Assembly (NCBI GenBank): GCA_977862235.1 | Contig: OZ374563.1 | Span: 682,001-746,000, forward strand | Source: Dudresnaya verticillata | Taxonomy: Eukaryota | DNA length: 64,000 nucleotides | Reading direction: 5' to 3' | Shown: positions 3,161 through 31,481 of the stretch, one piece after another | Position numbering within the stretch: the first letter of the stretch is position 1 | How the letters are laid out: every line of letters starts with the position of its first letter | Program-made: the position numbers and the translations under genes | The notes under the pieces: model-generated | The model's database searches: none | Seen by the model: the letters and a program-made list of their open reading frames with translations, nothing else | What the model was told of the DNA's origin: nothing

Positions 3161-3172
3161 CGACCCCCTCGC
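3161..3172 (-). promoter_or_regulatory. Polypurine tract (imperfect)
   Basis: The sense strand reads GCGAGGGGGTCG immediately before TGTGGTGCAA. Confidence 0.65.
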
Positions 3173-3612
3173 AAAACGCGAACACGTCCGCCTCAAGCTT
3201 GTGCTTTCCTGCGGGTCCCGCTTTGTCGTGCGTGCGTTCCTGCGTTCCGGCTGTGCCGCGCTAACTTCCCGTGCTGCGCGTTGCGTCCGGCGAGCTCTCG
3301 TTCTCTCGCGCTCGTTTCACCGTTCTTCATCGCCGCTGGCGCATTGTGAATCCCGTCAACGACGCCACATCCAAATCGTCGCCTGGGGCGTGTCAGCTGC
3401 ATCGTCGTCGACGAGTTGTGTGAAGTTCATCGCCCAAGGCGCAGGTGTTTCCCGGTGACGCAGCTTCATCGTAGTCGCCCGTGGCGCAGAACAAAAGGCG
3501 TCTTTGACGTAAGCAAAAAGTGTAACCGCCTGTGGCGTGGGGCAAGAGTCGTCGTTGACGGTTGTTTGACCTTAAGCGCCAGTGGCGTAAGCGAAGTTGC
3601 GTCGTCGACGAT

Positions 3613-5967: not shown

Positions 5968-7345
5968 CATAGTTAGCGTCGTTTAGGGCGGAAGGCCTTC
6001 GCGGGGGTGCGTATCGTGTACCTGGTCGGCTCCTTTGCGGAGTCGGGGCAAGGCGTCGTACGTCGTTGACGAATGTGTTAACTGTTCTGCGGCGTTTAGC
6101 CGCCGTGGCTTGTAGCTTGGGCGCGGGGCTTCTCCGTTGCTTAGCCCGAATAAATTGTATCGTTGGTAACGTAGTTTGGTTTCGTCTCGCTGCAACCGTC
6201 GTGTTGCAGCCGTCACGTCTTAGTGTTTTGCCACCGCGTTTCTTGTCTTCGTCGTGACGACGTTAGCGTATTAATCGTCGAGAGACGTTACTTGGGCGTT
6301 GTACCTCCCTTCTTGTTCGCACATTAGCGTTGTGTAGCGCGTCTGGAGCGTATAGGGGTTTAGCGACGTTGTCGGGGCCGAGCCTCTTGGTTATCTCGCT
6401 TAGCGAAGCGTTTCTTTGCGTTGCATTTCATCCTGCCACGCCCGACGTAGTCGTCTTAGGGGACTCGCTCAGCGCGTTGTTGGGCCATTTGCAACGCCTG
6501 GGGCGTATTCTCTTCTCGTTTGGTGCTCTGTAGCTTAGTTGCGCACGTCGTCGTTGACGGAGGTCGGCGTGTGGTAGGTGAGGTCAGAGCCTTGTTCCTC
6601 GTCTCCGACGTTCGCTTCCGAGGGTGGGGAATGGTCATCGCGCGACTGTGGCGGCCATTCCCAGCGGCGGAGCCAGTTGCGCGATTTGGTTAGCGATTCG
6701 GTTGTGCGTCGTGCACGGAACCGTGATAAACGCGTCCTCGACGACTCACTCCCCCCCTTTGGCTGCGGGTACGGCGGCGTGGCCCTTCTTCGGGAGGTGC
6801 GTCGGCGGCGTGGTGCGTGTGTTCGTGCCCGGCCGAGTCGTTCGCTGGCTGGGTAAGTGAAGGCGGCAGCGACTTGGCCGTGGTGCGCAAGCGTGCGGCA
6901 ACGTCGGGGACGGTCGTTGCGCGTTACGAAGTGCGTCTGGCGTCGTGCTTGCCGGTAGCACCGGTGCTGCCACTTGGCATATCTTGTTTGGCGTAATGGT
7001 TGATTGTCGGGTAGTGCGCCTCCCCTTTGTTTGGGCATTAAAATTTCCAGCTCGCGTCTGCGTCTGCAATGGGATTGGTGAGGAGCGTACCTCGGCGAGT
7101 GATCGGGAGCCACTGTCAGCCACCCGCGCATCCGGGGCGTTGTATGAGGCCCTTTTGGTATGTTTGTCGTTGACGCCAGATTTGTGTCCGGCTCCGTCGG
7201 TGACGTGTGTGCTTGATTGTCGCCGCGGCGGGTGTGTCCGCGTCCACGTACGTTAGAGGGGGCTTCCACGCCGTTGGCGACATCCTGTCCGCGCAGTCTC
7301 TGAACGTCATTGTATTCGCTATTAGCGTTGTTTTCCCGATTAGGG

Positions 7346-10300
7346 TTATCCGCGCTGGGCGTCCTCAATATTTGGAGCCAGGCGCGTGTGCTTCCGACGG
7401 TGGTACCGCACGGTGTGTGATCGCGGCAAACTGGACACGGGCTCCCAGGTGTTCGCTGAAGCGGGGTATCCAAACCACTTGACGCGGTAGAGGATCTCAC
7501 CATCATCCGCGTAGGCGTGCGACTCGATGCGTTCGATAACGTATTCTTTCCCGCTCACAGCGTTCGGCTTGGACCTGTGTCCTTCCAGCGCCTTTGGCGG
7601 TTCGTCTCGTTGCGTGATGGGCGTCTGGTCCGGTTCGGCGAAGCGTACTCGACGAGTTGATCGCCTGAGGCGTTGGCCGTGGGCCTCGGACGCTCGATCA
7701 GCGGTCAGTGGGTTGTTGCGTCTTGAGACAAGTTCATCGCTTGCAGCGCCGTGCTTCGTGCTTGCACGGTTAACGTCTTCGTTATCGGACGCGCTTTCAG
7801 CGGAGTCATTGTTCTCATTCGGCGGTGCCGTAGCGACGTGTTCCAAACGGGTGCGAACCCCTGGGGTATTGTCGTCGTTGGAGACGGATTGCGGAGCGCG
7901 GTCGTCGGGATCGGCAGCGAAGGGCCAAAGCTCTGCCAACCCACGGCTGCGTGACGCTGTGATCGTACGCTCTTGCGGATCTCTCGCAGTATGCGAAGTC
8001 TCTGCGTCCCCCTCCGGGTCCGCTGGTGGCGTGCTGGGGGTAGTCTTCCCTTCGTCTTGTGACGTGGGGGCGACTGCGTCCTGCTCCTCAGGCGGACCTG
8101 GTGGTACGACGATTGGAGGGGCCGCCTGACCCGGTGGGGTCGGCGCCCAGACCACGCGGTCTCGGTACAAACGTTCCCGCTCATTACGTCCCTTGTCGAC
8201 GGTTACTGTCTCGTTATCCACGTGAGTTACCCGATATGGGCCGTCCGCCACTGGCGCCAGCTTGTGCTTACGCTCTGCGCGATCCGTGCTCCCGCCGCGG
8301 GCGAAGTATTCCTTACGTACGAAGACGAAGTCGCCTATGGCGATTGATTCCTTCGATTTCCTTAATCGGGTATCGAAGTTTCGTTTGTAACGTGCTTGAG
8401 TTTTCTCTAACGACGCTTTAGCGGTTCCCATCAGTGCGGCCAACCAGGTTCGCCACTTGGTGTCGTATTGCCCCGCGGTGAGTACGCTTTCGAGCGAAGG
8501 TTCCGCTTCGAGCGACAGTGGGCGTGGTGGCTTAGACAGCACCAATTCAAACGGAGCGAGATGCGTAGACGAATGCAACTGTGTGTTGTATGCGAACGTC
8601 AAGGCATCCGTGAACAGATCCCAGTCTCTCGGATGATCCGCAACGTAGTGACGTAGCGAGGCCAGGATAGTTCGATTGAATCGTTCTGCCTGGCCATTGC
8701 ATTGCGGATGATATGTCGTGGTGAAGAGATTCTCCACTCCCAAAAGACGGCAGATATCCTGAAACAGCTTAGCCACAAACTGTGGTCCGTTGTCGGACAA
8801 CAATTTCTTGGGAGGACCGTACACGAAGACCCAATGTCGTACAAACGCCTTAGCGATTTCCAATGCCGTAATACTACGCAGTGGGACCGTCCGGACCAGC
8901 TTCGAGAAGCGGTCCACAATGACGAGTAGGAACTTGTTTCCTCGCTTCGTGCGTATGAGTTCGCCCAGGATGTCGATCGATACGAATTCGAGAGGCTCGG
9001 TTGCCGGGAACAACTTCAATTGCTTGGTGTTCTTTCGCAGCAATACGCGATTCTTAGCGCAGGTTACGCAGTTGCGGACGGTCGCGTAGCAGTCCACTGG
9101 CATCGATGGCCAATAGTATTCGCGTCGAAGCGTATGATACAACTTACGCCCCCCTGGGTGCCCTGCCAACTTGGCGTGGTGCCGGAGGTGGAGTAAGCGA
9201 GCGCGTAACGAGGAGGGTACGACCACTTGCGGACGGGCTTCCACCGTTCGGACCAACAGGCCCTGTTCATCCGTTGCGAACGGTAAGGTGACCCCGTCAT
9301 CAAGACGTTTCCGGACATCGTTACAGTAACTGTCATCGCCTTGGGCGTGTACCAACTCTTCATGCGTCACTTGACGAAGGAGTACCTCATCCGCCGGTGG
9401 CGTGTTGTTGATCAACACTTGGTCGAACTCTTCGAACTCGCGTTCGGCGAAGTCGACCTCGCCTTCGGCGTCTGACAGATCGTCTTGTGACGTTTGATGG
9501 CCGTCTTCGACGTAGCTTCCGTGATAGCACGGTATATCATCGTCAATGGGCTCGACGGTTTCTCCCTTCGTCTGTAGACGCGAAAGGGCATCTGCCTGAG
9601 TATTCAGGTACCCCTTTTTGTACTTCATGACAAAGTCGAACTCGGAAAGGCGAAGGCGCCACCGCATTAACCGTCCAGAGGGGTCGCTGATTTCCATCAG
9701 CCACCTCAATGACGAATGGTCCGTATGGACTGTGAACGACTCCATCTGGACGTAAGGTCGCAGCGTCACGACGGACCATACTACTGCGAGGCACTCCTTT
9801 TCGGAGACCGAGTAGTTACGCTCTGGAGCGGTGAGCGAGCGGGACCAGAAGCCGAGTGGCTTACGTTCCCCGCCTGGCTGCGTTTGAAAGAGAGCGCAGC
9901 CAACCTGATACTCGCTTGCGTCACAGTCGACGGAGTAGGGGAGACCCTGTTGTGGTAGCGCCAGCATAGGTGGATGAGTCACGGCCTCGAGGAGCGTACT
10001 GAACGCTTTGGCTTGTGTCTCATCAAACGGTGGTAACCGGAAGTCCTGTTCCTTCCTCAGCAACTTGTTGAGGGGGGCAGCGACGTGCGCGTATCGCGAG
10101 ACGAACCGTCGGTAGACGTTACAAAGACCGAGAAAACTCCGTAGCCCCTTCTGATCCCCTGGATGCTTGGCTTCGCGTAGCGCGGCAGTGACAGTTCGGT
10201 CAACTTCTAACCGTCCTGGACGTATGACGTGTCCTAAGTAGTTGACGGTCGGGGTGAAGAAGTCACACTTGGTCAACTTCAGAGTCACCCCGGCACGGTA

Positions 10301-12073
10301 CAATGTCGAAAGGATCTCGTCAACATGACGGAAGTGACTGTCGATGTCGCTGGAGAAGATTATTACGTCATCGAGGTAGACGATGCACGAACGCCACTTG
10401 TAACCAGCGAGCAGTATGTACAACGTTCGTTGAAACGTAGCGGGTGCGTTCGTGAGACCGAATGGCATACGCTTATAGCGGAACAGTCCGGCGTGGCACG
10501 TGAACGCAGTCTTATCGCGGTCTCGCGGATTGATCGGCACTTGCCAGTACCCACTGTTACAGTCTAGGGTGGTGAAGACGTTTGCTTCCCCTAGACTGTC
10601 GATGCATTCGTCGATACGCGGCAGCGGGTACGTGTCCCGTATGGTTACTGCGTTCAAACGACGGTAGTCTACGCAAAAGCGGAGGGTCCCGTCCTTCTTG
10701 GGGGCGAAGACCACTGGTGATGCCCACGGCGATTGTGCGGGTTCGATAACCCCTTGACGCAGCATGCGGTCCACTTCCGCTTGAGCGAGTTGCCTTTGCT
10801 TCGGCCCCGCTCGATAGGGCGGGGACGATATCGGTCTAGAGCCGGGAAGCAAGTCGATGTAGTGCTCTGTGGTTGAGATTTCTCCCAACGAACCGTCCCA
10901 CATAGACGAATACTTGCGCAACATCTCCTTAAGCCGGCCTTGATGCTCGGCGGGGAGTTGGCTCAGGTCCAAATCGTCTACAGACGGAGGTTTGGCAGTG
11001 GTTGCCTCGATAGACTTCGTGAAAGTATCCGGCTGCGCCGCAGTGTTATCGTTCGTTTGAAAACGGAAATCTTGGTTTGCCTTCTCCTCCTCGGCTTGTT
11101 CCTCCGTGAGGCCCAAAACATCGGCAAGACTTACGTGACTGGGGAACACTGCTGTCGGATGTGGTAACGCCGTCGCGGCGACTTGGCCTTTGGCCAGCGC
11201 CTGCGGGCGGGGAGAGAAGTTGGCAACCAGAATGCGAAACGCTTTTAGCGGCTCCACTTGAGCAATCCCGTTCGTAACGGCCAGACCTTGTTTGTCGTAC
11301 AGCGTTCCGAACGGTTGAATTGTGATGATGCCGGCGCGCTCGGTGGTCACCGATACCCATTGCTGCGCCTTAGGCGGGATGATCGCGCGCTCGGCGACTC
11401 GGATCTTGGGCGACGTCCTCCCCTCGGCCTTGCCGAATTCCTGTTCCGTTGGTAACGGAGGATACGACGGGGGTCGGCTCAGCGGGCGGCGCGTTATAGG
11501 GACACGAGTCCCGTCATCCAATTCAACCTCGCGACTTCGCGGATATATTGCTTCGACGAACCGGTCGCAAAAGTCACAGCCTAGTATCACCGGCGCAGCG
11601 AGTCGTTCGCAAACGATCAGTTCCAACTTGACGACTCTCCGTCCTAGACGAACGATCAGGTCGATGGTGCCTCTTGTCTGGATCGCCTTATTGTTGGCGT
11701 CGGCTATGACGGGGAGGCTCTTTGTCACGACGCGCGATCGCGCTTCCAGCGGAATGTCGTCGATGCGAATGAAATTCGGACCGGCCCCCGTGTCGAGGAC
11801 AGTGAGTTTACGTGCCAAGGTACTAACGGTTGCGCCCAAATCGGCGTACACCTTATAGTTCCTCTTGGCCATTACGAACAACTGCCCTCGCATTTGGGGG
11901 GGCTGGTACCTTCGCCATGGGCGTTTTAATGACGTCTGCGACGACTCTATCCGCCCGTTGGCGTCTTTTGTAACTAATTTCGGGCCCTCCTTCCGTGTCA
12001 GCACCCGAGGCCTAGGCCTCTCGTCGTGGTGCGACACCCCAGTGTCAGGTGTTGGTGCCCGAGTTAGTTTTTC
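7346..12073 (-). CDS. pol: Pol polyprotein (protease, RT, RNase H, integrase, chromodomain), entered by -1 frameshift
   Basis: LDTGAG protease, YLDD RT, DCDAS RNase H, HH..GHPG/CVTC zinc finger, DDE core and GPY motif. C-terminal chromodomain EYVIERI...YRVKWFGY...NTWEP. The frame is open from the slippery site at 12073. Confidence 0.97.
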   Translation of the reverse strand, partial: EKLTRAPTPDTGVSHHDERPRPRVLTRKEGPKLVTKDANGRIESSQTSLKRPWRRYQPPQMRGQLFVMAKRNYKVYADLGATVSTLARKLTVLDTGAGPNFIRIDDIPLEARSRVVTKSLPVIADANNKAIQTRGTIDLIVRLGRRVVKLELIVCERLAAPVILGCDFCDRFVEAIYPRSREVELDDGTRVPITRRPLSRPPSYPPLPTEQEFGKAEGRTSPKIRVAERAIIPPKAQQWVSVTTERAGIITIQPFGTLYDKQGLAVTNGIAQVEPLKAFRILVANFSPRPQALAKGQVAATALPHPTAVFPSHVSLADVLGLTEEQAEEEKANQDFRFQTNDNTAAQPDTFTKSIEATTAKPPSVDDLDLSQLPAEHQGRLKEMLRKYSSMWDGSLGEISTTEHYIDLLPGSRPISSPPYRAGPKQRQLAQAEVDRMLRQGVIEPAQSPWASPVVFAPKKDGTLRFCVDYRRLNAVTIRDTYPLPRIDECIDSLGEANVFTTLDCNSGYWQVPINPRDRDKTAFTCHAGLFRYKRMPFGLTNAPATFQRTLYILLAGYKWRSCIVYLDDVIIFSSDIDSHFRHVDEILSTLYRAGVTLKLTKCDFFTPTVNYLGHVIRPGRLEVDRTVTAALREAKHPGDQKGLRSFLGLCNVYRRFVSRYAHVAAPLNKLLRKEQDFRLPPFDETQAKAFSTLLEAVTHPPMLALPQQGLPYSVDCDASEYQVGCALFQTQPGGERKPLGFWSRSLTAPERNYSVSEKECLAVVWSVVTLRPYVQMESFTVHTDHSSLRWLMEISDPSGRLMRWRLRLSEFDFVMKYKKGYLNTQADALSRLQTKGETVEPIDDDIPCYHGSYVEDGHQTSQDDLSDAEGEVDFAEREFEEFDQVLINNTPPADEVLLRQVTHEELVHAQGDDSYCNDVRKRLDDGVTLPFATDEQGLLVRTVEARPQVVVPSSLRARLLHLRHHAKLAGHPGGRKLYHTLRREYYWPSMPVDCYATVRNCVTCAKNRVLLRKNTKQLKLFPATEPLEFVSIDILGELIRTKRGNKFLLVIVDRFSKLVRTVPLRSITALEIAKAFVRHWVFVYGPPKKLLSDNGPQFVAKLFQDICRLLGVENLFTTTYHPQCNGQAERFNRTILASLRHYVADHPRDWDLFTDALTFAYNTQLHSSTHLAPFELVLSKPPRPLSLEAEPSLESVLTAGQYDTKWRTWLAALMGTAKASLEKTQARYKRNFDTRLRKSKESIAIGDFVFVRKEYFARGGSTDRAERKHKLAPVADGPYRVTHVDNETVTVDKGRNERERLYRDRVVWAPTPPGQAAPPIVVPPGPPEEQDAVAPTSQDEGKTTPSTPPADPEGDAETSHTARDPQERTITASRSRGLAELWPFAADPDDRAPQSVSNDDNTPGVRTRLEHVATAPPNENNDSAESASDNEDVNRASTKHGAASDELVSRRNNPLTADRASEAHGQRLRRSTRRVRFAEPDQTPITQRDEPPKALEGHRSKPNAVSGKEYVIERIESHAYADDGEILYRVKWFGYPASANTWEPVSSLPRSHTVRYHRRKHTRLAPNIEDAQRG
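12025..12073 (-). promoter_or_regulatory. Putative -1 ribosomal frameshift signal
   Basis: G AAA AAC directly before the gag TAA, with pol in the -1 frame. Downstream GGCACC...GACAC-TGGG-GTGTC has stem or pseudoknot potential. Confidence 0.75.
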
Positions 12074-14637
12074 GACTGCGGCGGTGGTTGTGGCGCTTCA
12101 TAGCGGTTGATCATCGTCGGATGACGTTCTGCCGCGTGCGGCATGGGTCCGCCTCGTGGCGATTGTGGTCGTGCAGCACGGCGAGCAGCGTCGCGGGTCG
12201 CACGTTCTTTGCAACGTACATACGCATCAGCGGGGACACCAGCCTTCTCGGCTTCGGTTAGTCCTTCATAGTTGGTAATAACCTTCATGAAGTCGCTCAT
12301 GCGGAGGAAGCAGTCCGGCGCGATGTGGCCGCGGGCGTAGCATTGGTGGCATACCAGCTGCCGACGCGCGTCTTGACGGGGCGGGCCTCTGTCCTGCCAC
12401 CCGGGCCTTGCTCGGTGGACGTGAGGAGCATACTCGGAATAGGGGACGCGTGGCGCTGGCACGACCGAGCGCCCAAAGGCGAGAGCAGGGTCCATATCCC
12501 TTTCGTCCTCGTCATCGACGTAGCTGTCCGTTGGTAGGGCCGAGGTTGGCACCGACGCTTGCTCGTCTGCCAAGTACAAATCGCCTTCGGCGTGTGTTTC
12601 CATGTCATCGACAGGTCGACTAACGTCTCGGAACTCGATGGAGGACTCCGCTATCATAGCGCGCGCTCCAGGCTTGGCGCCTCTCGTCTGTGGACGCAGT
12701 ACCCCTCGGGCATCGCCGATGGCGGATCGCGGCGTGCGTACGGCTTGAGCCGGTGTCAGTAGGTCACGTCGCGCTGACGCGGAACCGGCTCTGCCGTGTC
12801 GTGCGCGGTTGGCATCCCCTTCGTCCTGTGCGAAGTGGACCAGCCGCTCAAATGACAACTCCGCCCTTGGCGTTTCTTCTCGGAAGCGAGCGACCAGAGA
12901 CCTGATCGACGGGTCTAACCCGTCGATGTACAGCGTCATCTTTTCCCAATCGGGATATACGTTACCGCAACGAATACACGCACCGGCTAGCCGCATCCCA
13001 TAGGTCGTCTCGTCCTCGCCTTGCTTTTGGGCAGTCGACCGTAGGGCGAGGACAGCGTCCCTGATCGCCGCTGGCGTAGCATACGTACGGAGGAGGTACT
13101 GTACCGCCTCCGGATACGAAGACACCCCGCCACGGTGGCGAGAAGATGTCGACTTGACGGAGCGGAATTGCGTGGCTGCCGTACCTCGCAAGAAGTACGG
13201 CAGCGCGACGAACGCTTGGGCTTCGCTCATCTCCAGCGTATCCGCTTCATCCGCGTAACGCGTCAGGAACTCGAGGACCATGACGGGGTCGCTGCCGTTG
13301 AAGGCGGCGTCCTTCATGGTCAGCTCCAAGCGCTTGATATGGTCTTTGACCTTACCCGTGTCGCGCCCTGAGCGTTTTTGCCCTACGTCTTTGAGACGGT
13401 ACGTCCTGTACGATAATAACTGATCGAAAAGGGGGTTGGAGGGGCGTAGCTCCTTCAACCCCTTGAACCGCTTTCCGCGAGGTCTTGCGGCACTGCCGAG
13501 AGTTGGGTAGTCGTCGTCTTCAGACGAAGAGTCCGATGACTCTCCGTCACTTGACGAGTCCGAAGACGATGAGGATGAGTCCCCTCGTCGATGACGATTC
13601 TTCTTCCGTCTCTGACGTAGCTTCCGACGGCGTTTCTTCCGGTCCTTACGTCTGTGACGATCTTCGCCTGAGCTCTCGTCACCTGACGGCGGACCATTGC
13701 GCCACTTGGCGGTTTCGAGACGCTCTAAGCGGGTCGCAAGTCGCTGAAAGCGTTCGCGTGAGCTAAGCTCAGAATGCGAATGAACCGAATGAACCGTTAC
13801 TGCCGGCGGTGGTTGTGTACCCTCGCCCTGGGCGTTTTGGTTCGTCAAGAGACGGTCGAGTTCGGAGCGTAGCCCTTGTAGGGCGCCGTTCCGATCCTCT
13901 TCCAACGTCTGTAGACGACTTGCGATTCCTCCGACACTGTCGTCCAGCAACCCGGCGAACCGAGCGAGCATCGCATCGTCCTCTAAGACGCACACCTCTC
14001 GGATCCGTTCGCGTGGTATCGTTAAGTTACTCACGCGGACGGCCGAGGGTGACGCCGTTGGCGGTTGGCTTTCGCAGTTGGACCGGTCGGGCGTCCCTTG
14101 CGCCCTTTGACTTGGCGAATTCGGCTTAGCCGGTGAACAACCGGCACTGCCGTGGGGAGTGGGGCAACATGCCCCGTGTGTCAAAGGTTCGTCACCGACG
14201 TTGCGCTCCGCGGAGCGCCCCTGTTCGTCGTTGACGTGGATGGTTGGTTGATCCGGAAGTTCCGGTTGTCCCGCGACGATGTCGGCTTGTGTTCCGTCTA
14301 CGACGTCCTGTTGCTCGGCTTGTACTGTATCAGCCGAGTCAACATAGGAGCGGTAGGTGCGGAGGGCCGATCCCTCGGGGACGGAGGTGCGGACGACGAC
14401 GGGGTTGTGGCGCGTCGGCGGGGGAGGTAACTCTCCTCCGTTGAGCGACGCGTGGGAGCCTGCGTGGCCATGGCCCGGGGGTAGCGTCGGGAACGCCGAC
14501 GCGATCTCGGGGCTCACGAGGCGCCCAGACCTCGTTGTCATCCGCTGTAGCGACCGTTCAGACGCGGGTACACTCCCAGGCGTCGAAGACGGTCTTCTTG
14601 AACTTGGGCCTCGCGACGGCGGCGGTCGTGAGGCCAT
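12064..14637 (-). CDS. gag: Gag polyprotein (857 aa)
   Basis: Long ORF just downstream of the PBS. Capsid-like region (FNGSDP...FL...QKQGEDETTYG) and CCHC knuckle CHQCYARGHIAPDC. Confidence 0.93.
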   Translation of the reverse strand: MASRPPPSRGPSSRRPSSTPGSVPASERSLQRMTTRSGRLVSPEIASAFPTLPPGHGHAGSHASLNGGELPPPPTRHNPVVVRTSVPEGSALRTYRSYVDSADTVQAEQQDVVDGTQADIVAGQPELPDQPTIHVNDEQGRSAERNVGDEPLTHGACCPTPHGSAGCSPAKPNSPSQRAQGTPDRSNCESQPPTASPSAVRVSNLTIPRERIREVCVLEDDAMLARFAGLLDDSVGGIASRLQTLEEDRNGALQGLRSELDRLLTNQNAQGEGTQPPPAVTVHSVHSHSELSSRERFQRLATRLERLETAKWRNGPPSGDESSGEDRHRRKDRKKRRRKLRQRRKKNRHRRGDSSSSSSDSSSDGESSDSSSEDDDYPTLGSAARPRGKRFKGLKELRPSNPLFDQLLSYRTYRLKDVGQKRSGRDTGKVKDHIKRLELTMKDAAFNGSDPVMVLEFLTRYADEADTLEMSEAQAFVALPYFLRGTAATQFRSVKSTSSRHRGGVSSYPEAVQYLLRTYATPAAIRDAVLALRSTAQKQGEDETTYGMRLAGACIRCGNVYPDWEKMTLYIDGLDPSIRSLVARFREETPRAELSFERLVHFAQDEGDANRARHGRAGSASARRDLLTPAQAVRTPRSAIGDARGVLRPQTRGAKPGARAMIAESSIEFRDVSRPVDDMETHAEGDLYLADEQASVPTSALPTDSYVDDEDERDMDPALAFGRSVVPAPRVPYSEYAPHVHRARPGWQDRGPPRQDARRQLVCHQCYARGHIAPDCFLRMSDFMKVITNYEGLTEAEKAGVPADAYVRCKERATRDAARRAARPQSPRGGPMPHAAERHPTMINRYEAPQPPPQSKN

Positions 14638-14744
14638 GATACAATCGTAGAGTTGCTTGAACGTCGTGGACGATTAGCGACAAACGTCAGAGACGGAGAG
14701 TCGGACGTCGCGCGACGGAGGAACTCGTTGAAACGTAGCACTGC

Positions 14745-14762
14745 TTCTAGGTCGGGAGACCA
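14745..14762 (-). promoter_or_regulatory. Primer-binding site, probably tRNA-Tyr
   Basis: TGGTCTCCCGACCTAGAA lies 2 nt after the terminal CA. Its complement ends CGGGAGACCA, matching the C1:G72/A73 acceptor end typical of eukaryotic tRNA-Tyr. Confidence 0.7.
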
Positions 14763-14764
14763 GA

Positions 14765-14848
14765 TGTGGTGCAAAGCGTCTGTAGACGATGGACCACCGA
14801 GCCCCGAACTGCTCGGCGGTCCATCGTCTACAGACGCTTTGCACCACA
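14765..14848. repeat. 84-bp palindrome replacing the 5' LTR (38-bp arms, 1 mismatch, 8-nt loop)
   Basis: TGTGGTGCAAAGCGTCTGTAGACGATGGACCACCGAGC-CCCGAACT-GCTCGGCGGTCCATCGTCTACAGACGCTTTGCACCACA. Bases 14794-14848 are the exact reverse complement of 2302-2356. Confidence 0.98.
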
Positions 14849-14937
14849 TAGACCACGGAGTCGTTCCGCGGATAGCGTCTATACCGCAAAGTGCACTCTT
14901 TGAGTTCACAAGAGACCTAAAAGGTACTTCGTTACAC

Positions 14938-15215
14938 CTATCGACGTGTGGAATCTCGGCGACGTCGGGCCGCAGCGGTTTCCATGTGCTTTCCATTCCA
15001 ACAGCGGTGGATGAAGTTTTGCGGCAACTCCTCGGCGGGTTCATACGTATCCTGGTCTGGTGGGTACCCGTAACAACGCACCTTGCAGGTCATGCCCGTG
15101 GGTTCTTCACGGTGTCCCGCGATCTGATAGATGATATACTCCGTGTCGGCATCAATTGTCTCGGGAACAAGGGCAGGAAGACCGCCTGGAGTTTGGGGCG
15201 TTACAGTAATACCAC
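14938..15215 (-). pseudogene. Decayed chromodomain of an older chromovirus pol
   Basis: EYIIYQIAGHR...KVRCYGYPPDQDTYEPAEELP resembles the intact element's chromodomain, with the conserved Trp residues lost. Confidence 0.8.
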
Positions 15216-15220
15216 CTGTG

Positions 15221-16041
15221 TGTAGCAGTATGGAAGCGGCCAGAAACAGCAAAGAACAAGAAAAGACAGCTGTCCGATGCCACACGCTAATGTGTGGTAG
15301 CTCGAGGGAGGATTGGTAGAGGCTTGGAAAAGGCGGGCCCTGATGACCCGAAAGGGGGGGTGCGGAAGCACGGTAAAGACTCGGCGCGACCGACTGAAGG
15401 AAAGTATAGAGGTTGCGACCCGGTGTTTTGTAGAGTACTTGTCGTACGATGTCTGGGCCTGTACTGGGCGACCCCTGCAGGCGCGGAGCGTCCGAGCGAC
15501 CAAAAGGTGGAAACTTCCCGAACAACTCCGCTGAGTGTTTATTATGAGGGCGCCGGCTATTCCGGCGCCCATAAGCAGGGCTTGACAGCCGAAAAGTCTA
15601 TCAGCCCGAAAGGGGGTCTAAGTTAGTCTGTGATTATAGATAAAAAGGTCAGTAATGTCATTACAAGTCAAAAGTGGGAATGTATTCCAGTTAGGGGACT
15701 TGGCGGCGGATGTGCCGGTGTGCATGACGAGGTCCCGGCTGCACTGTCGATAACCTGAGCGCAGAGGTGCTCCTCGTCCGTGAGTAGGAGCGCAGCGGCG
15801 CGTCATAAATCAGCCAATACGGGGTGTCCAACTGGCGCCATTACAATGCCACGTGTACGCCCCGTGTATAGCTGCACGTCCACGTGTACAGCTGTAAGTC
15901 CACGTGTACACACGTGTATTCCACGTGTCATCCACGTGTACAGCGATGAAAGGACAGCTGTCCTGATTAAGGGACAGTTTGTCCCGCGAAAAGGAAGGCG
16001 CTCCTGTCAGCCCTGCTGCTGACAGCGTCCATACTGCCACA
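15221..16041 (-). mobile_element. Solo LTR (821 bp)
   Basis: TGT...ACA ends with an imperfect 23-bp terminal inverted repeat (19/23). 5-bp TSD CTGTG at 15216-15220 and 16042-16046. Interrupts the old integrase-chromodomain linker. Confidence 0.9.
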
Positions 16042-16046
16042 CTGTG

Positions 16047-16600
16047 GGACACCACCTGGTGTTTGGGGTATTACTGTGGTGTCTTCCGCATGCTGGGGTA
16101 CTGTACCGCCCACGTCGGTGTGTGGCGTAACCGGCGGAGCCAATAGCGGCACCGGTTGAACGGGAAATCCAATTGGTACCTTAGTGATGCGATCGTTGCT
16201 GATGGGAACCAGGACGCCGTCCTGCTTGATAGTGACTACGGAGTCCGTTGCGGTGTGAACTTCGTAGGGGCCCGTCGATCTTGCGAGGAGCTTCTTCATT
16301 TGCTCCGCAAATTCACCGACGTGGGCAGGGCCTTGATCCAATCGGTCGCGTTCCTTCCGTTTGGTGGGTCGTAGATTACGCGGCGGGCGATCTACGTAGA
16401 CTTGATCGCCACCGCGAACCACCGGTTGGAAACGCACCTTACGGTCGAAGAGGGCCTTAGACTTCAACTGGGCTGCAGTCTGCTTGGTCTGCGCCTTCTG
16501 CAGGGCATAGCGCAAACGCCGCATGGTTCCCAGTTTTTGGAGCACGGGCGTCATACGCCCCTCCGTAACGGTTTCTTCCAACTCCACAGGGGTGCCCATT
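16047..16600 (-). pseudogene. Integrase C-terminal fragment of the older, 5'-truncated chromovirus
   Basis: AQLKSKALFDRKVR...GDQVYV...KKLLARSTGPYEV...ISNDRI parallels QARYKRNFDTRLR...GDFVFV...HKLAPVADGPYRV in the intact pol. Confidence 0.8.
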
Positions 16601-17678
16601 GCAGAGTTCTGCAAAGAATCATAACGACTACATTTTTCGCATTGCTGGATTTCTCCTGCGTTGCAGATGCCCTGTGGCGTAGACTATCTAGTGTCAAGCC
16701 AACGCGCACCCAAACAAGCTCGCGACACGTGTCAGGCGCGTGCGCGTGGCACGGTGGAACGTTGCGCGCCCCGATCGGCCCCACAAGCCGCGCAGTAGCA
16801 TTCCCTGTCCCGCACACGCGCACACCCGCTCGGCTTACGCACATGTCGGCTGCTGCTGCTGAGCCGCGGCGGAGGCGCCGCCTGTCTGGCGCTGTGCCAA
16901 ACGCGGAACAAACGCGCGCAAAGTCTACGGTCCCGCCGCCCGCGGCGTTTGCTCTGCGCCCTCCCGCGACCGGCCGCGCGCCGCGCCGCGCCGCGCCGCG
17001 CCGCGCCGACACGCTTTGTTGCTGCCGGCGCCGGCGCGACGCCCGACACGCCGCGCCACGCCGCGCCCTTTCTTTCCGGCGGCACTGCTCTTGTCGGTGC
17101 TTGTCGTGCTTGAACGCCCGCGCTATCTCGCAAACAGACAACCGTGCACTTCCTGTGCTTTTGATCCGCAGCCCGCCAACTGCTTTTCGGACGGCGGTTG
17201 CGCCTGGTGCGTCTGAAACTCTGCCAGTGCCCTGTCTTTGTCGTTGTAATCCGCCGTCGTTATCCTCCGGCCAGGAAACAGCTTCCCTTCCATCCAGCCT
17301 TTCTTCCGAGCCGAATCTACTCGCTTGCTACTTTCAAATCTAATGCCATTGCAGCCCCAGACTTGCTCAATACCATACACCACCGACCGCTACCACCTGT
17401 CCCGGCCCGCACCCCCATTTCGCACAACGCCTTTTAGTATGAAAACGCCCCGCAGCAACCACCTCCCGCGCAGGCCACCCGCTTAGGAAAGCAGACCAGC
17501 AACAACTTTCAATCCCACGGCTTCACCATGCCCTTCCAACCCACCTCATCCACCTTAACCCCTCACCAGTCTTCCTTCACTACAGCCGTCCCACGTTTGA
17601 GCAACGCTACACAAACGAACACCACCCCAACGCCCCGCCTCTCAAACCCCACACCTCCCACCCTTGCGCCAGCACACC

Positions 17679-18956
17679 ATGCCCGCAACCCGCCACAGCC
17701 ATGCCCACTTCGCATGTCTCTCCGCGCTCGTATTGACGCTACTCCTGCTGCCAGTCCCAGCCGACTCGCAACCAACGTGCGGCTTCGCCTTCCGCGACCT
17801 GCTGCGCTACTGCGCCCAGCCGGACCGCGCGTCGCCATCGAAGTGCTGCCACGCCGTGCGCCTCTTCAACGACGCCCTGTGCTGGTGCCAGCCGGCCGCG
17901 CTGGCCGCCGCGTCGCGCCTGGCGGCTAACCAGTACGCATTCGCGCTACGCGCCGAGTTCTGCGACGTCTCCGCCCCGTACCGTCCGTCCTTCCCCGCGC
18001 GCAATGGCCCGCCCACCCCCGACACCTGCCCGCCCGCCTTTGCCTCGCTGCCCGCCAACGCGTCGCAGGAGGGCTGCCCCGCTCCTGCGCAGCTGCGCGC
18101 GCGCCGAGAAGCTGCCGTAGAGAAACTGGACGGCTTGAGGCTTGCTGGAGTCGCGCCGGAAGATGTCAAGGCGTTCAGGGACCAGGTCGAGGGGCTCATG
18201 GTGGAAGATGTGTTATTTTCGAGTATTGGACTGTCGTACATCAACGGTGTTGGCCATGCTACGGATCTTTTGTTGAGCCGGCAAGACGCCGTTGGAAGCG
18301 AGGTGGACTGGTCTGGCGGACCGGAGGTTAGCGCCAGCGTGAAGGGCAAGTTTTGGCAAACCCCGGATATGGTCAGCTATTCCGTGGACTTTGTAGGTGA
18401 GGACGGGTTTTTCACCTCGAGACTCATGTTTGTCGGGTTTGAAAAGTGTTCCAACAAGATGCGATTTGTGTTCACTGCTGAACCGGGGGTCATCGAATCT
18501 ATAGCAAGCCAGTTTTACTATCCATCTGTGCCTGCCGACACAATAAGCCAGTATGATGTATCTGCAAAGGAAGTTTGTGACAAGATTGAGAGCGCTTGCG
18601 GGGATCGGGACGATTCTCCATTCGCTACAATGCAAGCCTGTATCGAGCATGTAACGGCTATGAAGGGAAATGGACAGGTGCTGTGTAACAACTTTGACCG
18701 AGAAGAAGTACCAGTTCTAGGTCTCTACGGAGATACTGTTGGCTGCAAGTATTCTCATGCTCTTGCTGCTGTTGCAGAGCCGGCAAAGATTTGCCCTCTG
18801 CTTGGTGCGACAGCGGGGGGTGTATGTGCGAAAGAGTTTTGTAGCAATGGAGAATATGCGGACATTTTTCAGTCTTCGGGACCGAGGTTTACTGGTTCGA
18901 GCTCATTCACATGCAATACTGGCACTGGGGTGTGTACTGAGAACTGGCCACAATGA
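17679..18956 (+). CDS. Secreted Cys-rich protein with an N-terminal eight-cysteine-motif-like module and an unknown C-terminal domain
   Basis: 425-aa ORF with a signal peptide (LSALVLTLLLLPVPADS), a C-x10-C-x10-CC-x10-CWC-x24-C-x21-C pattern and a second Cys-rich region at the C-terminus. Confidence 0.85.
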   Translation: MPATRHSHAHFACLSALVLTLLLLPVPADSQPTCGFAFRDLLRYCAQPDRASPSKCCHAVRLFNDALCWCQPAALAAASRLAANQYAFALRAEFCDVSAPYRPSFPARNGPPTPDTCPPAFASLPANASQEGCPAPAQLRARREAAVEKLDGLRLAGVAPEDVKAFRDQVEGLMVEDVLFSSIGLSYINGVGHATDLLLSRQDAVGSEVDWSGGPEVSASVKGKFWQTPDMVSYSVDFVGEDGFFTSRLMFVGFEKCSNKMRFVFTAEPGVIESIASQFYYPSVPADTISQYDVSAKEVCDKIESACGDRDDSPFATMQACIEHVTAMKGNGQVLCNNFDREEVPVLGLYGDTVGCKYSHALAAVAEPAKICPLLGATAGGVCAKEFCSNGEYADIFQSSGPRFTGSSSFTCNTGTGVCTENWPQ

Positions 18957-20491
18957 TACGTCATCCCCAAGGCTATTTCTTCGGCTCGAACATTGAAGTT
19001 GCGTTAGGGGACATTCAAAGGTGAGAAACGCACCAAGACGGTTCGATTGAGCACTCAGTGACTGATACTGTATGTCCGAGAGGGTCTCGTCGAGATAGTC
19101 GGAGCAGATGATGGCAAATCGCCACACATTCCCCCAAACCATACAAATATTCCAGGGGAATTGTACTTCCCCGACTTTACTGCAGCGTGCCTGACGTACC
19201 ATTATCATCACTTTATCAGTGTCCAGCTAAAAGGAAACCAGGTAATGTACATTGAGATGATTTCTACACTAGCATTTCTCACAACCACAGTTTTGTAGCA
19301 TGTCTACGTTCCTTTCGATTCTGTCATGCCTGTGTGATGTTACGCCTTGCTAGTATTTTAGGGTGCCTCAGAACAGGTTGTTCGCTAATATGAACCTTAG
19401 CAGAAGGCTCCTCAACATTTCTATAGCGGGAAGGTCAAAAAAGAACAAAGGGCTATAATGCATAGTACAAAACGAACACCCACAACTGCTGATGAGAGTT
19501 CATCATTATTTTGTGCAAGGTGCGGATTGAAATTGTTATCACTTTCAGGTCGTGTAACGCTACAATAGCATGTAGGGCAGGCAGTTGAGGTATACCTTCT
19601 CGTTCCTTTGCGGGAAAATTTGCTGTGTTCCACGTAAAAATTCAACGCTCAACGCGGCTCTTGTCCCAAAACAGCACTACACTGTCATTTCTATGCTACA
19701 TGCTCTGGAGAGCCACACGCAGTGGCATATGTTACAATGCAACAAGAATAACGGATATGCAAGCATTGGGTAACGGCATTCCATGAGTTTTACAATCTTC
19801 GCAGTCCAAAGAAGATGAAAGGCCAGAAAAGCTAACTAGTTATCAGAAGAAGCGGCATTAATCTGGCTCATATAGCAATCTCGCGGGATGTTTCGACATC
19901 GCAGTATGGTATCTCTCGCTGAAAAGGACAACTTTTGCTCTATTTTCGCAGGACTTTGGTACAGAGCAGTGCATAGTGTGGGAGCTATCCTCTGTGTCTG
20001 CACCGTTGACTACCTTCGAAGGTAGCTTGCCGTGCTCGTTTTATCGGTCACGCGTGAAGGGAGCTGCTGTGGCTCAGAGCAGTATTTTCCGAATCCCCTC
20101 CAAGGGGTCAGATATTTTTTTTGTTTGTAATTTGCTAGTTTTTCGAAAGTTTGTGGATCAACTCGTGAAGGTTCGCGATGAACCAGCTCGCCCGTTTGGA
20201 CGGGCAATCCCGTTTCCGAATGCCACTGTCTCCAGGAGAGCCCCGGTGCACCCTTTTCAACATCGCCACGCGCTCTAGCATGCAGCACAACGGCCGCCTC
20301 CTGTCTTGGAAGGCAAGGGTCCTCATCCCACGCATAGAAGCTTGAGGCGACGGCGATGACGTGGATGGCAAGCACATCATTGCACCGTGCTGGCAACTGA
20401 AAACAACTTGGAACCGGCACGCCCTTGGCCTGTCACTTCGTGCCGTCGTCCGGCGCGAGACTCGGGCCACTCCCTTCTGTTCCTGCTGGTC

Positions 20492-23043
20492 ATGGATGTT
20501 GCGGATTCCATCGAGGCCGAGGGAGATCCCGAAGAGTTCCAGCAGAGGATAATTGAAGAAGCGCGGTAAGTAGTTCCTTATGACCTACACCTTGCGTACT
20601 CACGTGCTGTCTGACTTTCGGCTCGCGAACAGGCGACTGATGTATTCTTGAAAACTCGTTCTAACCGTCATCTGTGCTTCGGACATCAATGCCTGCTTTC
20701 GATAGAGAGCTCAAAGCCGCGTATGACGCTACCAAGAGAGAGGCTGCCCGCCGCATTGTCTTGAGGAATGTCCATAACACTGCAGCGTTTTATGCAGAGC
20801 AACGTGCATTGCGAGACGAGTATCTTGCCGAGAACGAAACCGAGCGGGAAGGGAACGAAGGCAGTGCAGGGCAGAGTTGTGTTGGTCACGAGAAGCCTGC
20901 GTCGCCTGCGAATGATGACCTACAAGTTGTTTCTGTTAAGCGAACAACAACTGCTTTTGATATTTCTCTGGAACGCTTGGATAGAATTCGTGAGATGAGG
21001 GCACATGGAGGTGTCCATGTTGTCATGCCAGACGTCAACAAGTTACCGCGTTTTAACGCTTGGGTACCGGTTGTGCAGAACCAATTTGTCACGGAACCGG
21101 ACTGCGGTGTCTACGTCCCTTGGTTCGGAGATGACGCCGAGTCGCTGAAGAAAGCAGCCGAAGTGTATGAAATGATGCAAGATGACGCGGAGTTCGAGTC
21201 TGCGTTTAACGAGCCAAGCGACGGCGAGATAAATGAAGTTGGCGAGCTGAAAGAGAAGAAGGATCCGTCGAACTACACTCTTGACTCCATGCTCGGCCGT
21301 GCAGCAATCAGACACGTTGTGGTAGAGATTACTACCCGACATGGCAAGCCTTACGTCATTTGGGCTGCACTCGCAAACGCTTTGAAAGTTGATGATATTC
21401 GTCGCCTGCTGCATATGTGCGACCTTGCAGAAAGACGAAATGCTGAGAAGCAGAAGAAACTGGAGGACCGCAAGACATCTCTGCGACATAAGAAGAGTAT
21501 TGAGAAAGCAGTATACAGGCGCAATGCGGAGTGTTTCAGACAGCAGGGTCGGGACGGAAACGCAACCAATCCTCTCCGCTTCTTCTGTTTTTTCTGTCAT
21601 GAGTTCGCATGCCACTTCCACGCTGGCGATAGCGTAGCCCCAGTCATACCGATACCGGACCGAAAAGCGGAGCAGAGAAACTTACACTTCGGGAGAAGCA
21701 AAGGTAAAATTGAGCCATGCTCGATGAAATGCTATCTCCTGGAGAAGTGGAGACAAGTTCCAACTCTGCCTGAAGAAGGCCAAACTTGGTCCGCGACGGA
21801 GTTAGCACTCCTCGACGAGGGTGCCGCAATGTTCCTCAGGGATCCATGTGGAATATCACAAATAATTGGCACAAAGACATGCCGTGAAGTCAATGAAAGA
21901 ATTCGGGGCCCGCAAGAGGTGGTCCGCATCAACGAGCTTATTTGCCGGGTGAAGGCTCCACGTGATCCGCCACCGGCCAATGCTGGCCCGGATGGCAGAA
22001 CCCCACAGGAAGATACTCGAGATCTGGTTTCTGCGAAGCAGAAACGGGGGAGAAGACTGCGATATCGGCGGCGTCTCAAGTCTGCCTGTACAGTTCCCGA
22101 GAAGAAGTCCTCTCCAACTCAGGATGAAGAGCGTTTTGTCCCCTGCAATCATGCCGGGATATGTACGAAGAGAAATGGATGCAGATGTGCGTTAAAGGGG
22201 CTAGAGTGCCAGTCAGTGTGCGGGTGCAATAGCGGTCGTTTCGTTGAAGGGAAGGAGGGGATTTTCTGGCTTGGTCCAACGGAGGAAGCGACAGACAGGC
22301 TGGATGGAAAGAGATGCAAGCTGAGAGTGCAGGGTTGTGACTGTAAGGATGGATATTGCAATACGGCCAACTGCGACTGTCACCAGGCTCGCCGGATATG
22401 CAACCCTGATTATTGCAATTCTTGTGAATGCAACGTGCTGCCTTCGCAAGCAGACTTTCGAATGAGGCGGTGCCGAAATGCTGATCTTATTACCGGGAGG
22501 CATAAGAAGACGTTTGTCGGTAGGTCGAGCGTTCACGGATTTGGGTTGTTTGCAGGGGAATACTTTTGGCATGGAGATCTGATCGGGCCGTACTGCGGAC
22601 GTCTGATGGAGAACGATTTGATGGACCGGGCGTTGCGGGTACCGCAGGCGATACGTGAAACATTCGCATTCCAGGTTGTGAAGGGGATGGCAATTGACGG
22701 GGGTGTGGTGGGCAGCAAAGCAAAGTTTATTAATCATCAGGAGGGGAAGGAGGTTAACTGTGAAGCGCGCACAGAGCGGTACCGTGGAGAGGCTCGGATT
22801 GCTCTCAAAGCCAAACGGCAGATAAGTCCAGGTGAGGAGCTTTTCTTCAACTACGCGATCATTGATGAAGGAGGAGATGGGAATAACTGGTTGATGGGGG
22901 ACAAGCGAAAAAAATCCCGACGACAGGGTTCAAGTCGAGGCACGAATGATGCAGACGAGGAAAACCGGGCTAGTTCAGACGAGGAGGGTTCTTCGTCGAA
23001 GAGTTCTAGCAGCTCAGACGATGAGTATTTTGCGGCGTTCTAA
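20492..23043 (+). CDS. Enhancer of zeste-like (PRC2) CXC-SET histone methyltransferase; exons 20492-20565 and 20706-23043
   Basis: FCFFCHEFACHFH motif, SANT-like region, CXC (PCNH...C...) and SET (VHGFGLFAGE, YCG, KFINH, GEELFFNY). The intron GTAAGT...CTAAC...TAG joins the exons in frame. Confidence 0.9.
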
Positions 23044-28184: not shown

Positions 28185-31100
28185 ATGCACTTCTTCCTCC
28201 CGCCGTGGCTGCGCCACGGCCGCCCGCGCGCCCCGGCCAGCGTCTTCAGCGTCGACGTCGAGCCGCACGGCACCCGCCTCGCATCGGCTGGCCAGGACTG
28301 CGCCGTCAAGATCTGGTCGCTGCCGGTGCTGCGCTCGCTCGCCGTCCCGGCCTCGTCCGCCACCGCCGCCGCCACCGCCGCCGCCGAGGCCGCTGCTCCC
28401 GCCGCCGCCGAGGCCCTCCCGCCGCGCGGCGCCCTGCTCGCCACCATCTCGTCGCACTCGTCCGCCGTCAACTGCGTGCGCTGGGCCCCCGCGGGCCGTC
28501 TGCTGGCGTCCGCGGGTGACGACGCCGTCGTCCTCATCTACCACCAGCTCGAGTCTGCCCCGGGCCCCACCTCAGCCTTCGCCGCCGCTGCCGCTGCCGC
28601 CCCGGGCCAGCCCGCCCTCGAGAACTGGCGCGTGCGCCGCCCGCTGCGCGCCCACGCCGGTGACGTCACCGACCTGTGCTGGAGTCCGGACGGCCAGCGC
28701 CTGGCCTCGGCCAGCGTCGACAATGTTATCTACATCTGGAGCGTCCGCACCGAGCGCGCTGTCGTCCGCCTCGATGGACACACTGGCCTCGTCAAGGGCG
28801 TCGCGTGGGACCCCGTCGGCCGCTACCTCGCCTCCCAGTCAGACGACCGCTCATTGCGCATCTGGCGCACCTCGGACTGGAAGACGGAGAAGCTGATTTC
28901 TAAGCCCTTCGACTCCGCCGTGTACAAGGAGAATTCCATGGCCTTCTTCCTCCGCATCTCGTGGTCCCCGTGCGGTACACAGCTCCTTGCCACCAACGCG
29001 TACAAGAAGCCCGGCGCACACCACGCCCCCATGTTCTCGCGCGAGTCTGCCTTTGAGGAGCAGATTGAGTTTGTCGGCCACCGCGAGCCCGTCGTCTCCA
29101 CCCGCTTCTCTCCGAGGCTGTACCGCGCCCACCCGAAGAAGATCTCCGCTATGCGCGAATCTGTCGAGGCAGAGAACAAACGCAACGAGAGTGTGGCTGG
29201 CTATGTCAAGAAACCTCCACCAGACCCTTTGGCCACCTATACCTGCCTCGCTCTCGGTTCCAAGGACTGCGGTGCCACTATTTGGCAGGCGACTGGCGTG
29301 CGCCCCTTTTTCGATATGGCACAAATGTTCGATTCTGACGTTATCGATTTGTCCTGGGGCAGCGATGGCTACACACTCGTCTCATGCTCCACGGATGGCA
29401 AGATTATGTATATCAGATTTGAATCGGAGGAGCTTGGTGTCGTCGTGTCTCAGGAAGAAACTAGGAATATTCTTACAAAGGTCTGGCGCGAGTTTGGCGG
29501 TGCTGGTGACAGTGCCGCTCCGATTCCTGAATCTGCCACCCAACTACAGATGGAAAATGCGCAAAAGCAAGTGGGGGAGGAAAAGACTCCAGTGCCTCCA
29601 GTGCAAAGAAAGGGTACTCCAACACAGTCGGCTCAGCAGCAGCAGCAATCGCGACTGCAGCAAAAGCAGCAACCGGCACAGCAATCTCCACAGCAATCTC
29701 CACAGCAATCTCCACAGCAACCACAACAACAAGCACCGGACCAACTGCAAAGACCAAATGGCCATGAAGGCTCTGCACGGGAACGCGTCGATGTCGTCGA
29801 AGACACCCTCGACTCTGAGGCGCATCGCCAAAAGCCACCTCTCCCACCAGCAGCAGAAAAGCGACGAAGCGATGTGCCAAATTCAGTCGTTGTCGCTGCT
29901 GCTGCTGCTCGTGAAAATGGTCCCACCCCACCAGCAGACCCACGCATTATCGCAGCACAGGCGGAGGTCCGGGTAAAGGGAGGCAAGCGCCGTATCACCC
30001 CAATGACAGTTACTGCGCATGCCGAACTGAAGCGCGACCCGCCCCCTACTCCCCTGCCGACCAAACGACCGGCACTGCACGATACCGACGGAGACAGTGT
30101 ACCGGCGACTGCGTCACCGATGAAGCGACCTAGGGCCAACGCATTTGCGATAGATGCAGACGTGTCTAGAGAAGGCTTCACTCAAAGCAATGTCGCAAGC
30201 AGCATTGCGACCAACGGAAACTATGCATTGCCTAACGGGGGAGAAGTGCATGCGAAGCGAGATTTGGCAAGCATTGCTCGCCCCGGAGCACGCCCAACAG
30301 CGCATGCAGCTAACCTGTACGCGCCAAGTATAGTTGGGCTGAACATGATGCTGTTACCAGACCGTGGGGAAGGCCCAGGGCGATGCAGAGTAATCAGCAG
30401 AGACATACCACCCACCGTTTTAGAATCAAAGGAACATCATGGAAGTGGTGGTGGATACGTTGTCATGTGTTCACGAGCAGGGGAAGTACAATGGCGGGAC
30501 TACCACCCAAAGTCATGTCCAGTCACGGCACTGGCAGGTGTAGCAGGCAAATATGTAGCCGTCGGCACAGGTGACGGAACTCTATTTTTTTACTCTGCCT
30601 TATCTGGCAGACGTTTAGTCCCGCCTATTGCGATTGACTCTGCGCCGTATATGCTTGAAGCTATCACTTTGCAGACGGAGGGCCCCTCGGATGCTTCCAC
30701 TCTGAAGGAAGAATTGGAAAGATGGTTTGTCGTGCTGGTATCCAGAAGTGCGCTTTGCACTGTTTTCGATGTCAAGGCCAAGAAGCTCGTATGTGCAAGA
30801 AGTGCAGCCTCGCTTTTGGCGAAGCCGCAAGAACCATCTGCGACAGGGAAAGCAGAGAGTGCGAAGGCGAAAATCCTCAGAGAGGTGGCTTATTGCAAGG
30901 TCACTGAAGCTGGGGAACCGATTCTGGTCTTGACGGATGGACATGCCTATGTGTACTCCAAGAGTTTCTGCTCCTGGTTGCGAGTGGCAGACAACTTCAG
31001 TCCAAACTCAGACTTTGTTAGAACCATCCCGGCTTCTACCAAAGTCGGAATTTTGCGCTCATTGCAAGCGAGAAATCGATTGACGGGAAAATCTCTTCCT

Positions 31101-31481
31101 TCTCTCTCAGGAATGGCAGACTTGCAGCGCTCTGCAGTGGAATCTTTAGCTCATCTCGAATCACTGATGGAATCGGCCGTTGCCTTGGGCTCGGCCTCTG
31201 ACTACAGGTATTACTTGACAAACTACGCCAGTCGCATTGCTGGGGCGGTTAGCGACGATGTCGAGAATTGCGTTGTCAGGTTGCGAGAGCTATGCGATGT
31301 CCTGCTGCACAGCAGTGACCCCTCGATGGACAAAACCATTTTGGGGATGAGCAGTCGAGAACTGCTCAAGAATTCGGTGCTACCCGTCGTCTCCAGCAAC
31401 AGGCGTATGCAAAGGTTCGTGGCCGAGTACACGGAAAGCCTAACCGAGATCGAAAGACGCGCCAATGAGACTTGTAAATAG
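28185..31481 (+). CDS. HIRA: Histone H3.3 chaperone HIRA
   Basis: N-terminal WD40 (PPWLRH...VFSVDV, VKGVAWDPVGRYLASQSDD), B-domain GKRRITP and C-terminal Hira domain (SLAHLES, RLRELC). Confidence 0.96.
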   Translation: MHFFLPPWLRHGRPRAPASVFSVDVEPHGTRLASAGQDCAVKIWSLPVLRSLAVPASSATAAATAAAEAAAPAAAEALPPRGALLATISSHSSAVNCVRWAPAGRLLASAGDDAVVLIYHQLESAPGPTSAFAAAAAAAPGQPALENWRVRRPLRAHAGDVTDLCWSPDGQRLASASVDNVIYIWSVRTERAVVRLDGHTGLVKGVAWDPVGRYLASQSDDRSLRIWRTSDWKTEKLISKPFDSAVYKENSMAFFLRISWSPCGTQLLATNAYKKPGAHHAPMFSRESAFEEQIEFVGHREPVVSTRFSPRLYRAHPKKISAMRESVEAENKRNESVAGYVKKPPPDPLATYTCLALGSKDCGATIWQATGVRPFFDMAQMFDSDVIDLSWGSDGYTLVSCSTDGKIMYIRFESEELGVVVSQEETRNILTKVWREFGGAGDSAAPIPESATQLQMENAQKQVGEEKTPVPPVQRKGTPTQSAQQQQQSRLQQKQQPAQQSPQQSPQQSPQQPQQQAPDQLQRPNGHEGSARERVDVVEDTLDSEAHRQKPPLPPAAEKRRSDVPNSVVVAAAAARENGPTPPADPRIIAAQAEVRVKGGKRRITPMTVTAHAELKRDPPPTPLPTKRPALHDTDGDSVPATASPMKRPRANAFAIDADVSREGFTQSNVASSIATNGNYALPNGGEVHAKRDLASIARPGARPTAHAANLYAPSIVGLNMMLLPDRGEGPGRCRVISRDIPPTVLESKEHHGSGGGYVVMCSRAGEVQWRDYHPKSCPVTALAGVAGKYVAVGTGDGTLFFYSALSGRRLVPPIAIDSAPYMLEAITLQTEGPSDASTLKEELERWFVVLVSRSALCTVFDVKAKKLVCARSAASLLAKPQEPSATGKAESAKAKILREVAYCKVTEAGEPILVLTDGHAYVYSKSFCSWLRVADNFSPNSDFVRTIPASTKVGILRSLQARNRLTGKSLPSLSGMADLQRSAVESLAHLESLMESAVALGSASDYRYYLTNYASRIAGAVSDDVENCVVRLRELCDVLLHSSDPSMDKTILGMSSRELLKNSVLPVVSSNRRMQRFVAEYTESLTEIERRANETCK

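Follow-up and report, generated by a model that had tools for sequence, protein, structure and literature searches.

A conserved red-algal protein family joining an nsLTP-type eight-cysteine pattern to predicted NTF2-like and BfoA-like domains

A 64,000-nucleotide stretch of Dudresnaya verticillata DNA (GenBank assembly GCA_977862235.1, contig OZ374563.1, forward strand positions 682,001 to 746,000; hereafter the window) contains a conserved red-algal gene whose product joins an N-terminal eight-cysteine domain, patterned like plant nsLTPs (non-specific lipid transfer proteins), to a predicted NTF2-like domain and a BfoA-like cysteine-rich domain (Table 1). The interpretation developed here, to which an even chance is given, is that of a likely secreted, disulfide-locked protein that sits in the wall or surface matrix and binds a ligand without catalysis. 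The cysteines of the N-terminal domain lie at residues 34, 45, 56, 57, 68, 70, 95 and 117, a spacing of 10-10-0-10-1(W)-24-21 and exactly that described in an earlier sequence-only reading of this DNA; the PSKCCHAV context and the C-terminal stretches which that reading quoted are likewise present in the translation. Its interpretation, an nsLTP/prolamin-like motif fused to a second cysteine-rich domain, is partly supported. The signal peptide it placed ahead of the motif is likely as judged by hydropathy, since windows above 1.8 start at residues 9-18 and define a hydrophobic stretch at about residues 9-28. Structure prediction places a helix at residues 9-23 of this region, and the full-length relatives also carry hydrophobic leaders.

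The gene belongs to what appears to be an undescribed, conserved multi-copy red-algal family. A phmmer search of 1.84 billion representative proteins, a collection that does not include the window protein itself, returned 33 matches at E ≤0.001, 29 of them at E ≤1e-10, from which two repeat proteins matching short stretches (P0033 and P0036) were then removed; word searches added three further relatives, and three partial or degenerate sequences (P0004, P0034 and P0035) were left out of the alignment (A3). Among the 29 clusters looked up in the taxonomic survey that the earlier reading had proposed, the four with names are all red algal (Agarophyton chilense, Gracilariopsis chorda, Pyropia vietnamensis and Chondrus crispus). 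All eight cysteines, on whose conservation that reading had staked its case, are unchanged throughout all 20 full-length rows, as are W69 and R91. The full motif occurs in 26 stored proteins, with X of the CXC being W in 25 and F in one; a loose form of the eight-cysteine motif (8CM) arose by chance in 16 of 20,000 shuffles of the 21-cysteine window protein. The domain is absent from 11 rows of the alignment, three of which (P0046, P0049 and P0039) look like late-starting gene calls, since for each of them a longer protein in its cluster possesses it.

Cysteine losses are also revealing. Of the 20 full-length members, four lack both C133 and C257 and none lacks just one of the two, and thus C133 likely pairs with C257 on the NTF2 sheet. 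C412 and C419 are jointly lost in P0009. The co-loss pattern shows the eight N-terminal cysteines behaving as a closed set, and says nothing more on their pairing. In a quick tree the window protein clusters with a clade containing the Chondrus cluster (support 97), and the two Gracilariaceae proteins sit in separate deep clades, an arrangement that suggests paralogous subfamilies of long standing. Two proteins compared from the Gracilariopsis chorda cluster, P0037 and P0017, are alike from just before the CWC onward and unlike upstream, and this suggests an intron inside the eight-cysteine domain of that paralogue. When metagenome loci were scanned with the three closest proteins, 143 stretches matched and none was confirmed; the broader alignments contained no segment of sufficient conservation for such a scan, and an NCBIfam scan gave no match. 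A literature search that largely excluded subscription journals found no paper dealing with the family, with an 8CM protein of red algae or with what BfoA does.

The whole-protein model predicts a rigid three-domain arrangement (predicted template modelling score, pTM, 0.88). Folded alone, the eight-cysteine domain is predicted at a predicted local distance difference test score (pLDDT) of 88 as four helices, the fourth of only four residues, and is modelled as a distorted nsLTP-type helical scaffold. Foldseek placed Pru p 3 at the top, with eight nsLTPs in 44 rows, Act c 10 and Cor a 8 counted among them; after re-alignment of the structural rows, nsLTPs made up six of the top seven. In the fold check called for by the earlier reading, four helices are thus predicted and the nsLTP family ranks first, with scores no higher than those of any small helical bundle. 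No type II nsLTP, DIR1, 2S albumin, alpha-amylase/trypsin inhibitor or hybrid proline-rich protein chain was recognised among the structural matches listed.

In the HMMER check against Pfam proposed earlier, PF00234 was matched by 10 of the 20 N-terminal domains, LTP_2 by two and any other family by one; the window protein, at 15.6-15.8 bits, fell below the curated cut-off of 21.7 for PF00234/PF14368, and Prolamin_like, which had been named as a further candidate, was in no list from the Pfam scans. The best family member reached E 5.8e-4 against the nsLTP profiles, while in the positive control 32 of 40 were matched with a best E of 3.8e-12. In the Pfam copy searched, the other cysteine-rich segment matches no family, nor does the window protein as a whole. 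Sequence searches of solved structures with the eight-cysteine domain, the family profile and the N-terminal domain profile gave nothing better than E 0.14, the Atlas held no usable match for the N-terminal domain alone, and no stand-alone eight-cysteine form was found among 279 candidates of 50-177 residues with the N-terminal domain profile, a search of limited sensitivity. The protein is not an nsLTP family member by size, Pfam score or shown function; what it carries is the nsLTP cysteine scaffold pattern.

Whether that pattern reflects descent is about evenly balanced: the domain may share an ancestor with the 8CM proteins of the green lineage, and it has an equal chance of being what it would then be, a true ancient branch of the prolamin/nsLTP superfamily held by red algae in both Bangiophyceae and Florideophyceae, always fused to the NTF2 and BfoA-like module. 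The foremost alternative, somewhat improbable though substantial, is convergence, in which a helical disulfide domain peculiar to red algae and unrelated to prolamins or nsLTPs came upon CC and CXC at similar spacing by chance. Several results favour it and so weigh against common ancestry. Beyond the cysteines there is no significant signal against type II nsLTPs; the structural scores are such as any small helical bundle would give; neither a solved structure nor a short protein among the candidates was matched by the domain profile; and G35, N64, W69 and R91, invariant in the family, do not characterise the alignment of type II nsLTPs. Convergence must nevertheless account for eight cysteines, the CC/CXC order, central spacings of 10 and 24 residues and the helix register all coinciding, and for the nsLTP family being ranked first by Pfam as well as by Foldseek. 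In addition, the family mean against the type II nsLTP profile (7.7 bits) lies above two cysteine-fixed nulls (4.2±0.6 and 5.7±0.7), in a comparison whose members are related and not independent. The profile comparison covered type II nsLTPs, and the nsLTPs of green algae were themselves missed by BLAST with plant baits (PMC9832785).

The latter proteins alter what is new about the present family. The sequence-only reading regarded nsLTPs as land-plant proteins, an older view also held in PMC5052319 and overtaken by published green-algal nsLTPs. Huang et al. 2023 (PMC9832785) reported 29 candidates, including CrLTP1/2 and OtLTP1/2, from green algae but not a single one from the seven red algae surveyed, from which absence a green-lineage origin of nsLTPs was inferred; PMC12985213 names the green-algal lineage as a new nsLTP group. 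The filter applied by Huang et al. required 8CM spacers of 8-50 residues, a signal peptide, a mass below 60 kDa, and the LTP2 motif or no other Pfam motif. Its spacing and mass limits accommodate each of the 22 full-length proteins examined (43.9-55.4 kDa), and the newer family PF28386 is on record for relatives of the window protein. One of the seven red-algal misses may be explained by the annotated Chondrus relative (XP_005711025.1), a 201-residue model without the motif. Since green-algal nsLTPs are published and the family passes the sequence filter described there, the news lies in the red-algal occurrence and the fusion.

The fusion partners bear upon function. What the earlier reading took for one C-terminal part with an NTF2-like core is better described as two domains; an NTF2-like fold is indeed predicted, and a likeness to fungal proteins is indicated. 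The first is predicted as three helices on a curved antiparallel sheet (a cone fold) and the second terminates in a beta-hairpin carrying C412-C419 and a near-invariant E-x-W. Conserved residues of the module are arginine and aromatics (R143, 27 of 27; R201; W226, 30 of 30; F251; F254; R357; W423) together with Q278, a set that would suit ligand binding or a purely structural role. In the mechanism proposed, the protein would be secreted and locked by ten disulfides; the NTF2 cone would be the main ligand site, binding without catalysis, and its arginine and aromatic residues would suit an anionic or amphipathic ligand, e.g. a sulfated galactan or a fatty acid/oxylipin. The eight-cysteine domain, its core probably packed by W/F/Y63, W69, Y86 and F88, would act as a rigid structural or lid module that would have been added onto an older NTF2 and cysteine-rich module. 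The main text of a preprint on the Chondrus cuticle proteome (10.64898/2026.01.12.698930) does not mention the Chondrus relative or the family.

A working lipid-transfer module, by which the protein would use two pockets (8CM and NTF2) to bring lipids or similar hydrophobic cargo to the surface of red algae, is unlikely. Passage of the family through the green-algal sequence filter speaks for it, given that CrLTP2 there bound fatty acids and that several green-algal candidates are likewise 40-50 kDa according to the supplement (PMC9832785), as does the hydrophobic X of the CXC, typical of the lipid-binding LTP2 and DIR1 types (PMC5052319). Against this, four of the 13 strongly hydrophobic, core-like columns are at least 85% aromatic, as compared with two of 12 for type II nsLTPs, and the X position holds W rather than L or F; such residues would tend to fill a cavity, and the brevity of helix 4 also argues against a carrier. 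An aromatic-filled core would make lipid shuttling as in free nsLTPs improbable. Of the domain fusion for lipid or ligand binding in the cell wall suggested by the sequence-only reading, the fusion is present and ligand binding is favoured, whereas a classic lipid carrier is disfavoured. A secreted NTF2/SnoaL-like isomerase, cyclase or hydrolase acting on an oxylipin or wall substrate, with cysteine-rich domains that stabilise or target it, is equally doubtful: ketosteroid isomerases, epoxide hydrolases and SnoaL cyclases are among the closest solved folds and BfoA takes its name from a fungal naphthopyrone biosynthesis cluster, but identity to the enzymes is 3-18%, a shared NTF2 fold proves no function, and the NTF2-like domain has no invariant Asp, Glu or His (at best D/E268 in 24 of 31 and D/E255 in 20 of 30).

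The C-terminal module probably has a wider distribution than the family. PF28386 (BfoA_C) is precomputed on three of the five relatives returned (P0002, P0003 and P0045; score not displayed), and the first Atlas matches are all BfoA clusters (0.81, a lead only). PF28387 (BfoA_N) is not on record for the relatives examined, in the region predicted to have the NTF2-like fold, and the phmmer matches included no identified fungal protein. In a viral fold library, the NTF2 and cysteine-rich module was matched over about 260-330 columns at 12-14% identity in Tupanvirus A0A6N1NTF9, Pithovirus W5S583 and the unnamed entries A0A1D6Y766 and A0A6B9UTK0; thus BfoA-like proteins likely reach giant viruses.

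Table 1. Features of the window, in window positions.
Feature	Position	Strand	Remarks
Uninterrupted open reading frame (ORF)	17679..18956	+	single frame from ATG to stop; 425 aa, 45.5 kDa; 21 cysteines, 20 family-conserved and one in leader
Likely signal peptide, aa 1-29 (putative cleavage site)	17679..17765	+	hydropathy, predicted helix, relatives' leaders
Eight-cysteine (8CM-type) domain, aa 34-117	17778..18029	+	C-x10-C-x10-CC-x10-CWC-x24-C-x21-C; predicted four helices and extended tail
Linker holding C133	18030..18080	+	C133 co-lost with C257
NTF2-like (SnoaL/ketosteroid-isomerase-type) alpha+beta domain, about aa 135-273	18081..18497	+	invariant R143 and W226
Cysteine-rich helical C-terminal domain, BfoA_C-like, aa 296-425	18564..18953	+	10 Cys; PF28386 on record for relatives, Atlas lead, fold prediction
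Gypsy-type retrotransposon	7346-14637 and 14938-16614	-	gag-like (857 aa) and pol (1515 aa; reverse transcriptase, RNase H, integrase, chromodomain) frames, both open; positions include fragments of a similar element
Divergent E(z)/EZH2-like SET protein	20689-23043	+	weak pre-SET CXC matches; adjoins eight-cysteine gene
474-aa ORF	45757-47181	+	unmatched in Pfam at E ≤0.01
Complex I 75-kDa subunit (NDUFS1/Nad11) ORF, C-terminal part only	61005-62582	+	Fer4_NDSU1 from aa 48, then Molybdopterin, NADH_dhqG_C

The window contains long intron-free genes, and one gene has a PBS-lyase HEAT-like match, features that together with the names of the relatives point to a red-algal host. Fragments of an element similar to the Gypsy-type retrotransposon lie about 1 kb upstream of the eight-cysteine gene, and no long direct repeats were found in window positions 1-20000. 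The NDUFS1/Nad11 ORF has an in-frame stop just upstream and resembles a split gene whose leader is short. A strong 5'-to-3' drop in third-position GC content (about 0.9 to 0.4) is seen at 17679-18956, 28185-31481, 31572-34493 and 45757-47181, and not in all long genes. In the eight-cysteine gene this drop (0.92 to 0.36) was considered as a sign of recent fusion or foreign DNA; because three of the seven other window genes checked share it, it is uninformative on fusion.

If homology holds, the 8CM scaffold would go back to an ancestor shared by red and green algae, ahead of the split between them, and the scaffold on which the cuticle carriers of land plants, seed storage proteins and major food allergens are built would predate the free lipid carrier of the green lineage. 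A family that passes the filter of PMC9832785 makes the green-lineage origin claimed there testable. If instead the pattern is convergent, unrelated domains can satisfy 8CM filters, a point that matters for the way in which candidates from green algae were selected. In both cases, the results define an apparently undescribed, probably extracellular seaweed protein family and link a fungal BfoA module without assigned function to algae and giant viruses.

Plant nsLTPs are the closest known systems to the N-terminal domain. The helix and cysteine layout used for comparison was taken from PMC5052319, and the four predicted helices of the red-algal domain are in register with its cysteines. Shared with plant nsLTPs are the C-C-CC-CXC-C-C order, a hydrophobic X, central spacings of about 10 and 24 and likely secretion; unlike them, usually single-domain proteins below 10 kDa (PMC5052319), the present protein has three domains and is several times larger (45.5 kDa). 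Type D/II nsLTPs (DIR1 and rice LTP2) are closest by spacing, with DIR1 nearest (9-15-0-9-1-24-7), and type I nsLTPs (Pru p 3, Cor a 8 and maize LTP) by fold score. The nsLTPs of green algae (PMC9832785) are alike in being algal and divergent in their 8CM, and the family here falls within their spacing and mass filter and likely their signal-peptide filter; it differs in being red algal and in its fixed fusion to NTF2-like and BfoA_C-like domains, a comparison made without direct sequence alignment. From the NTF2-like superfamily (SnoaL, ketosteroid isomerase and limonene epoxide hydrolase) the central domain stands apart in its low identity (3-18%), its likely extracellular location and its likely disulfide ties. 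Finally, the fungal BfoA clusters among the Atlas matches listed (290-356 residues) and the Tupanvirus protein (277 residues) are about the length of the NTF2 and cysteine-rich module alone.
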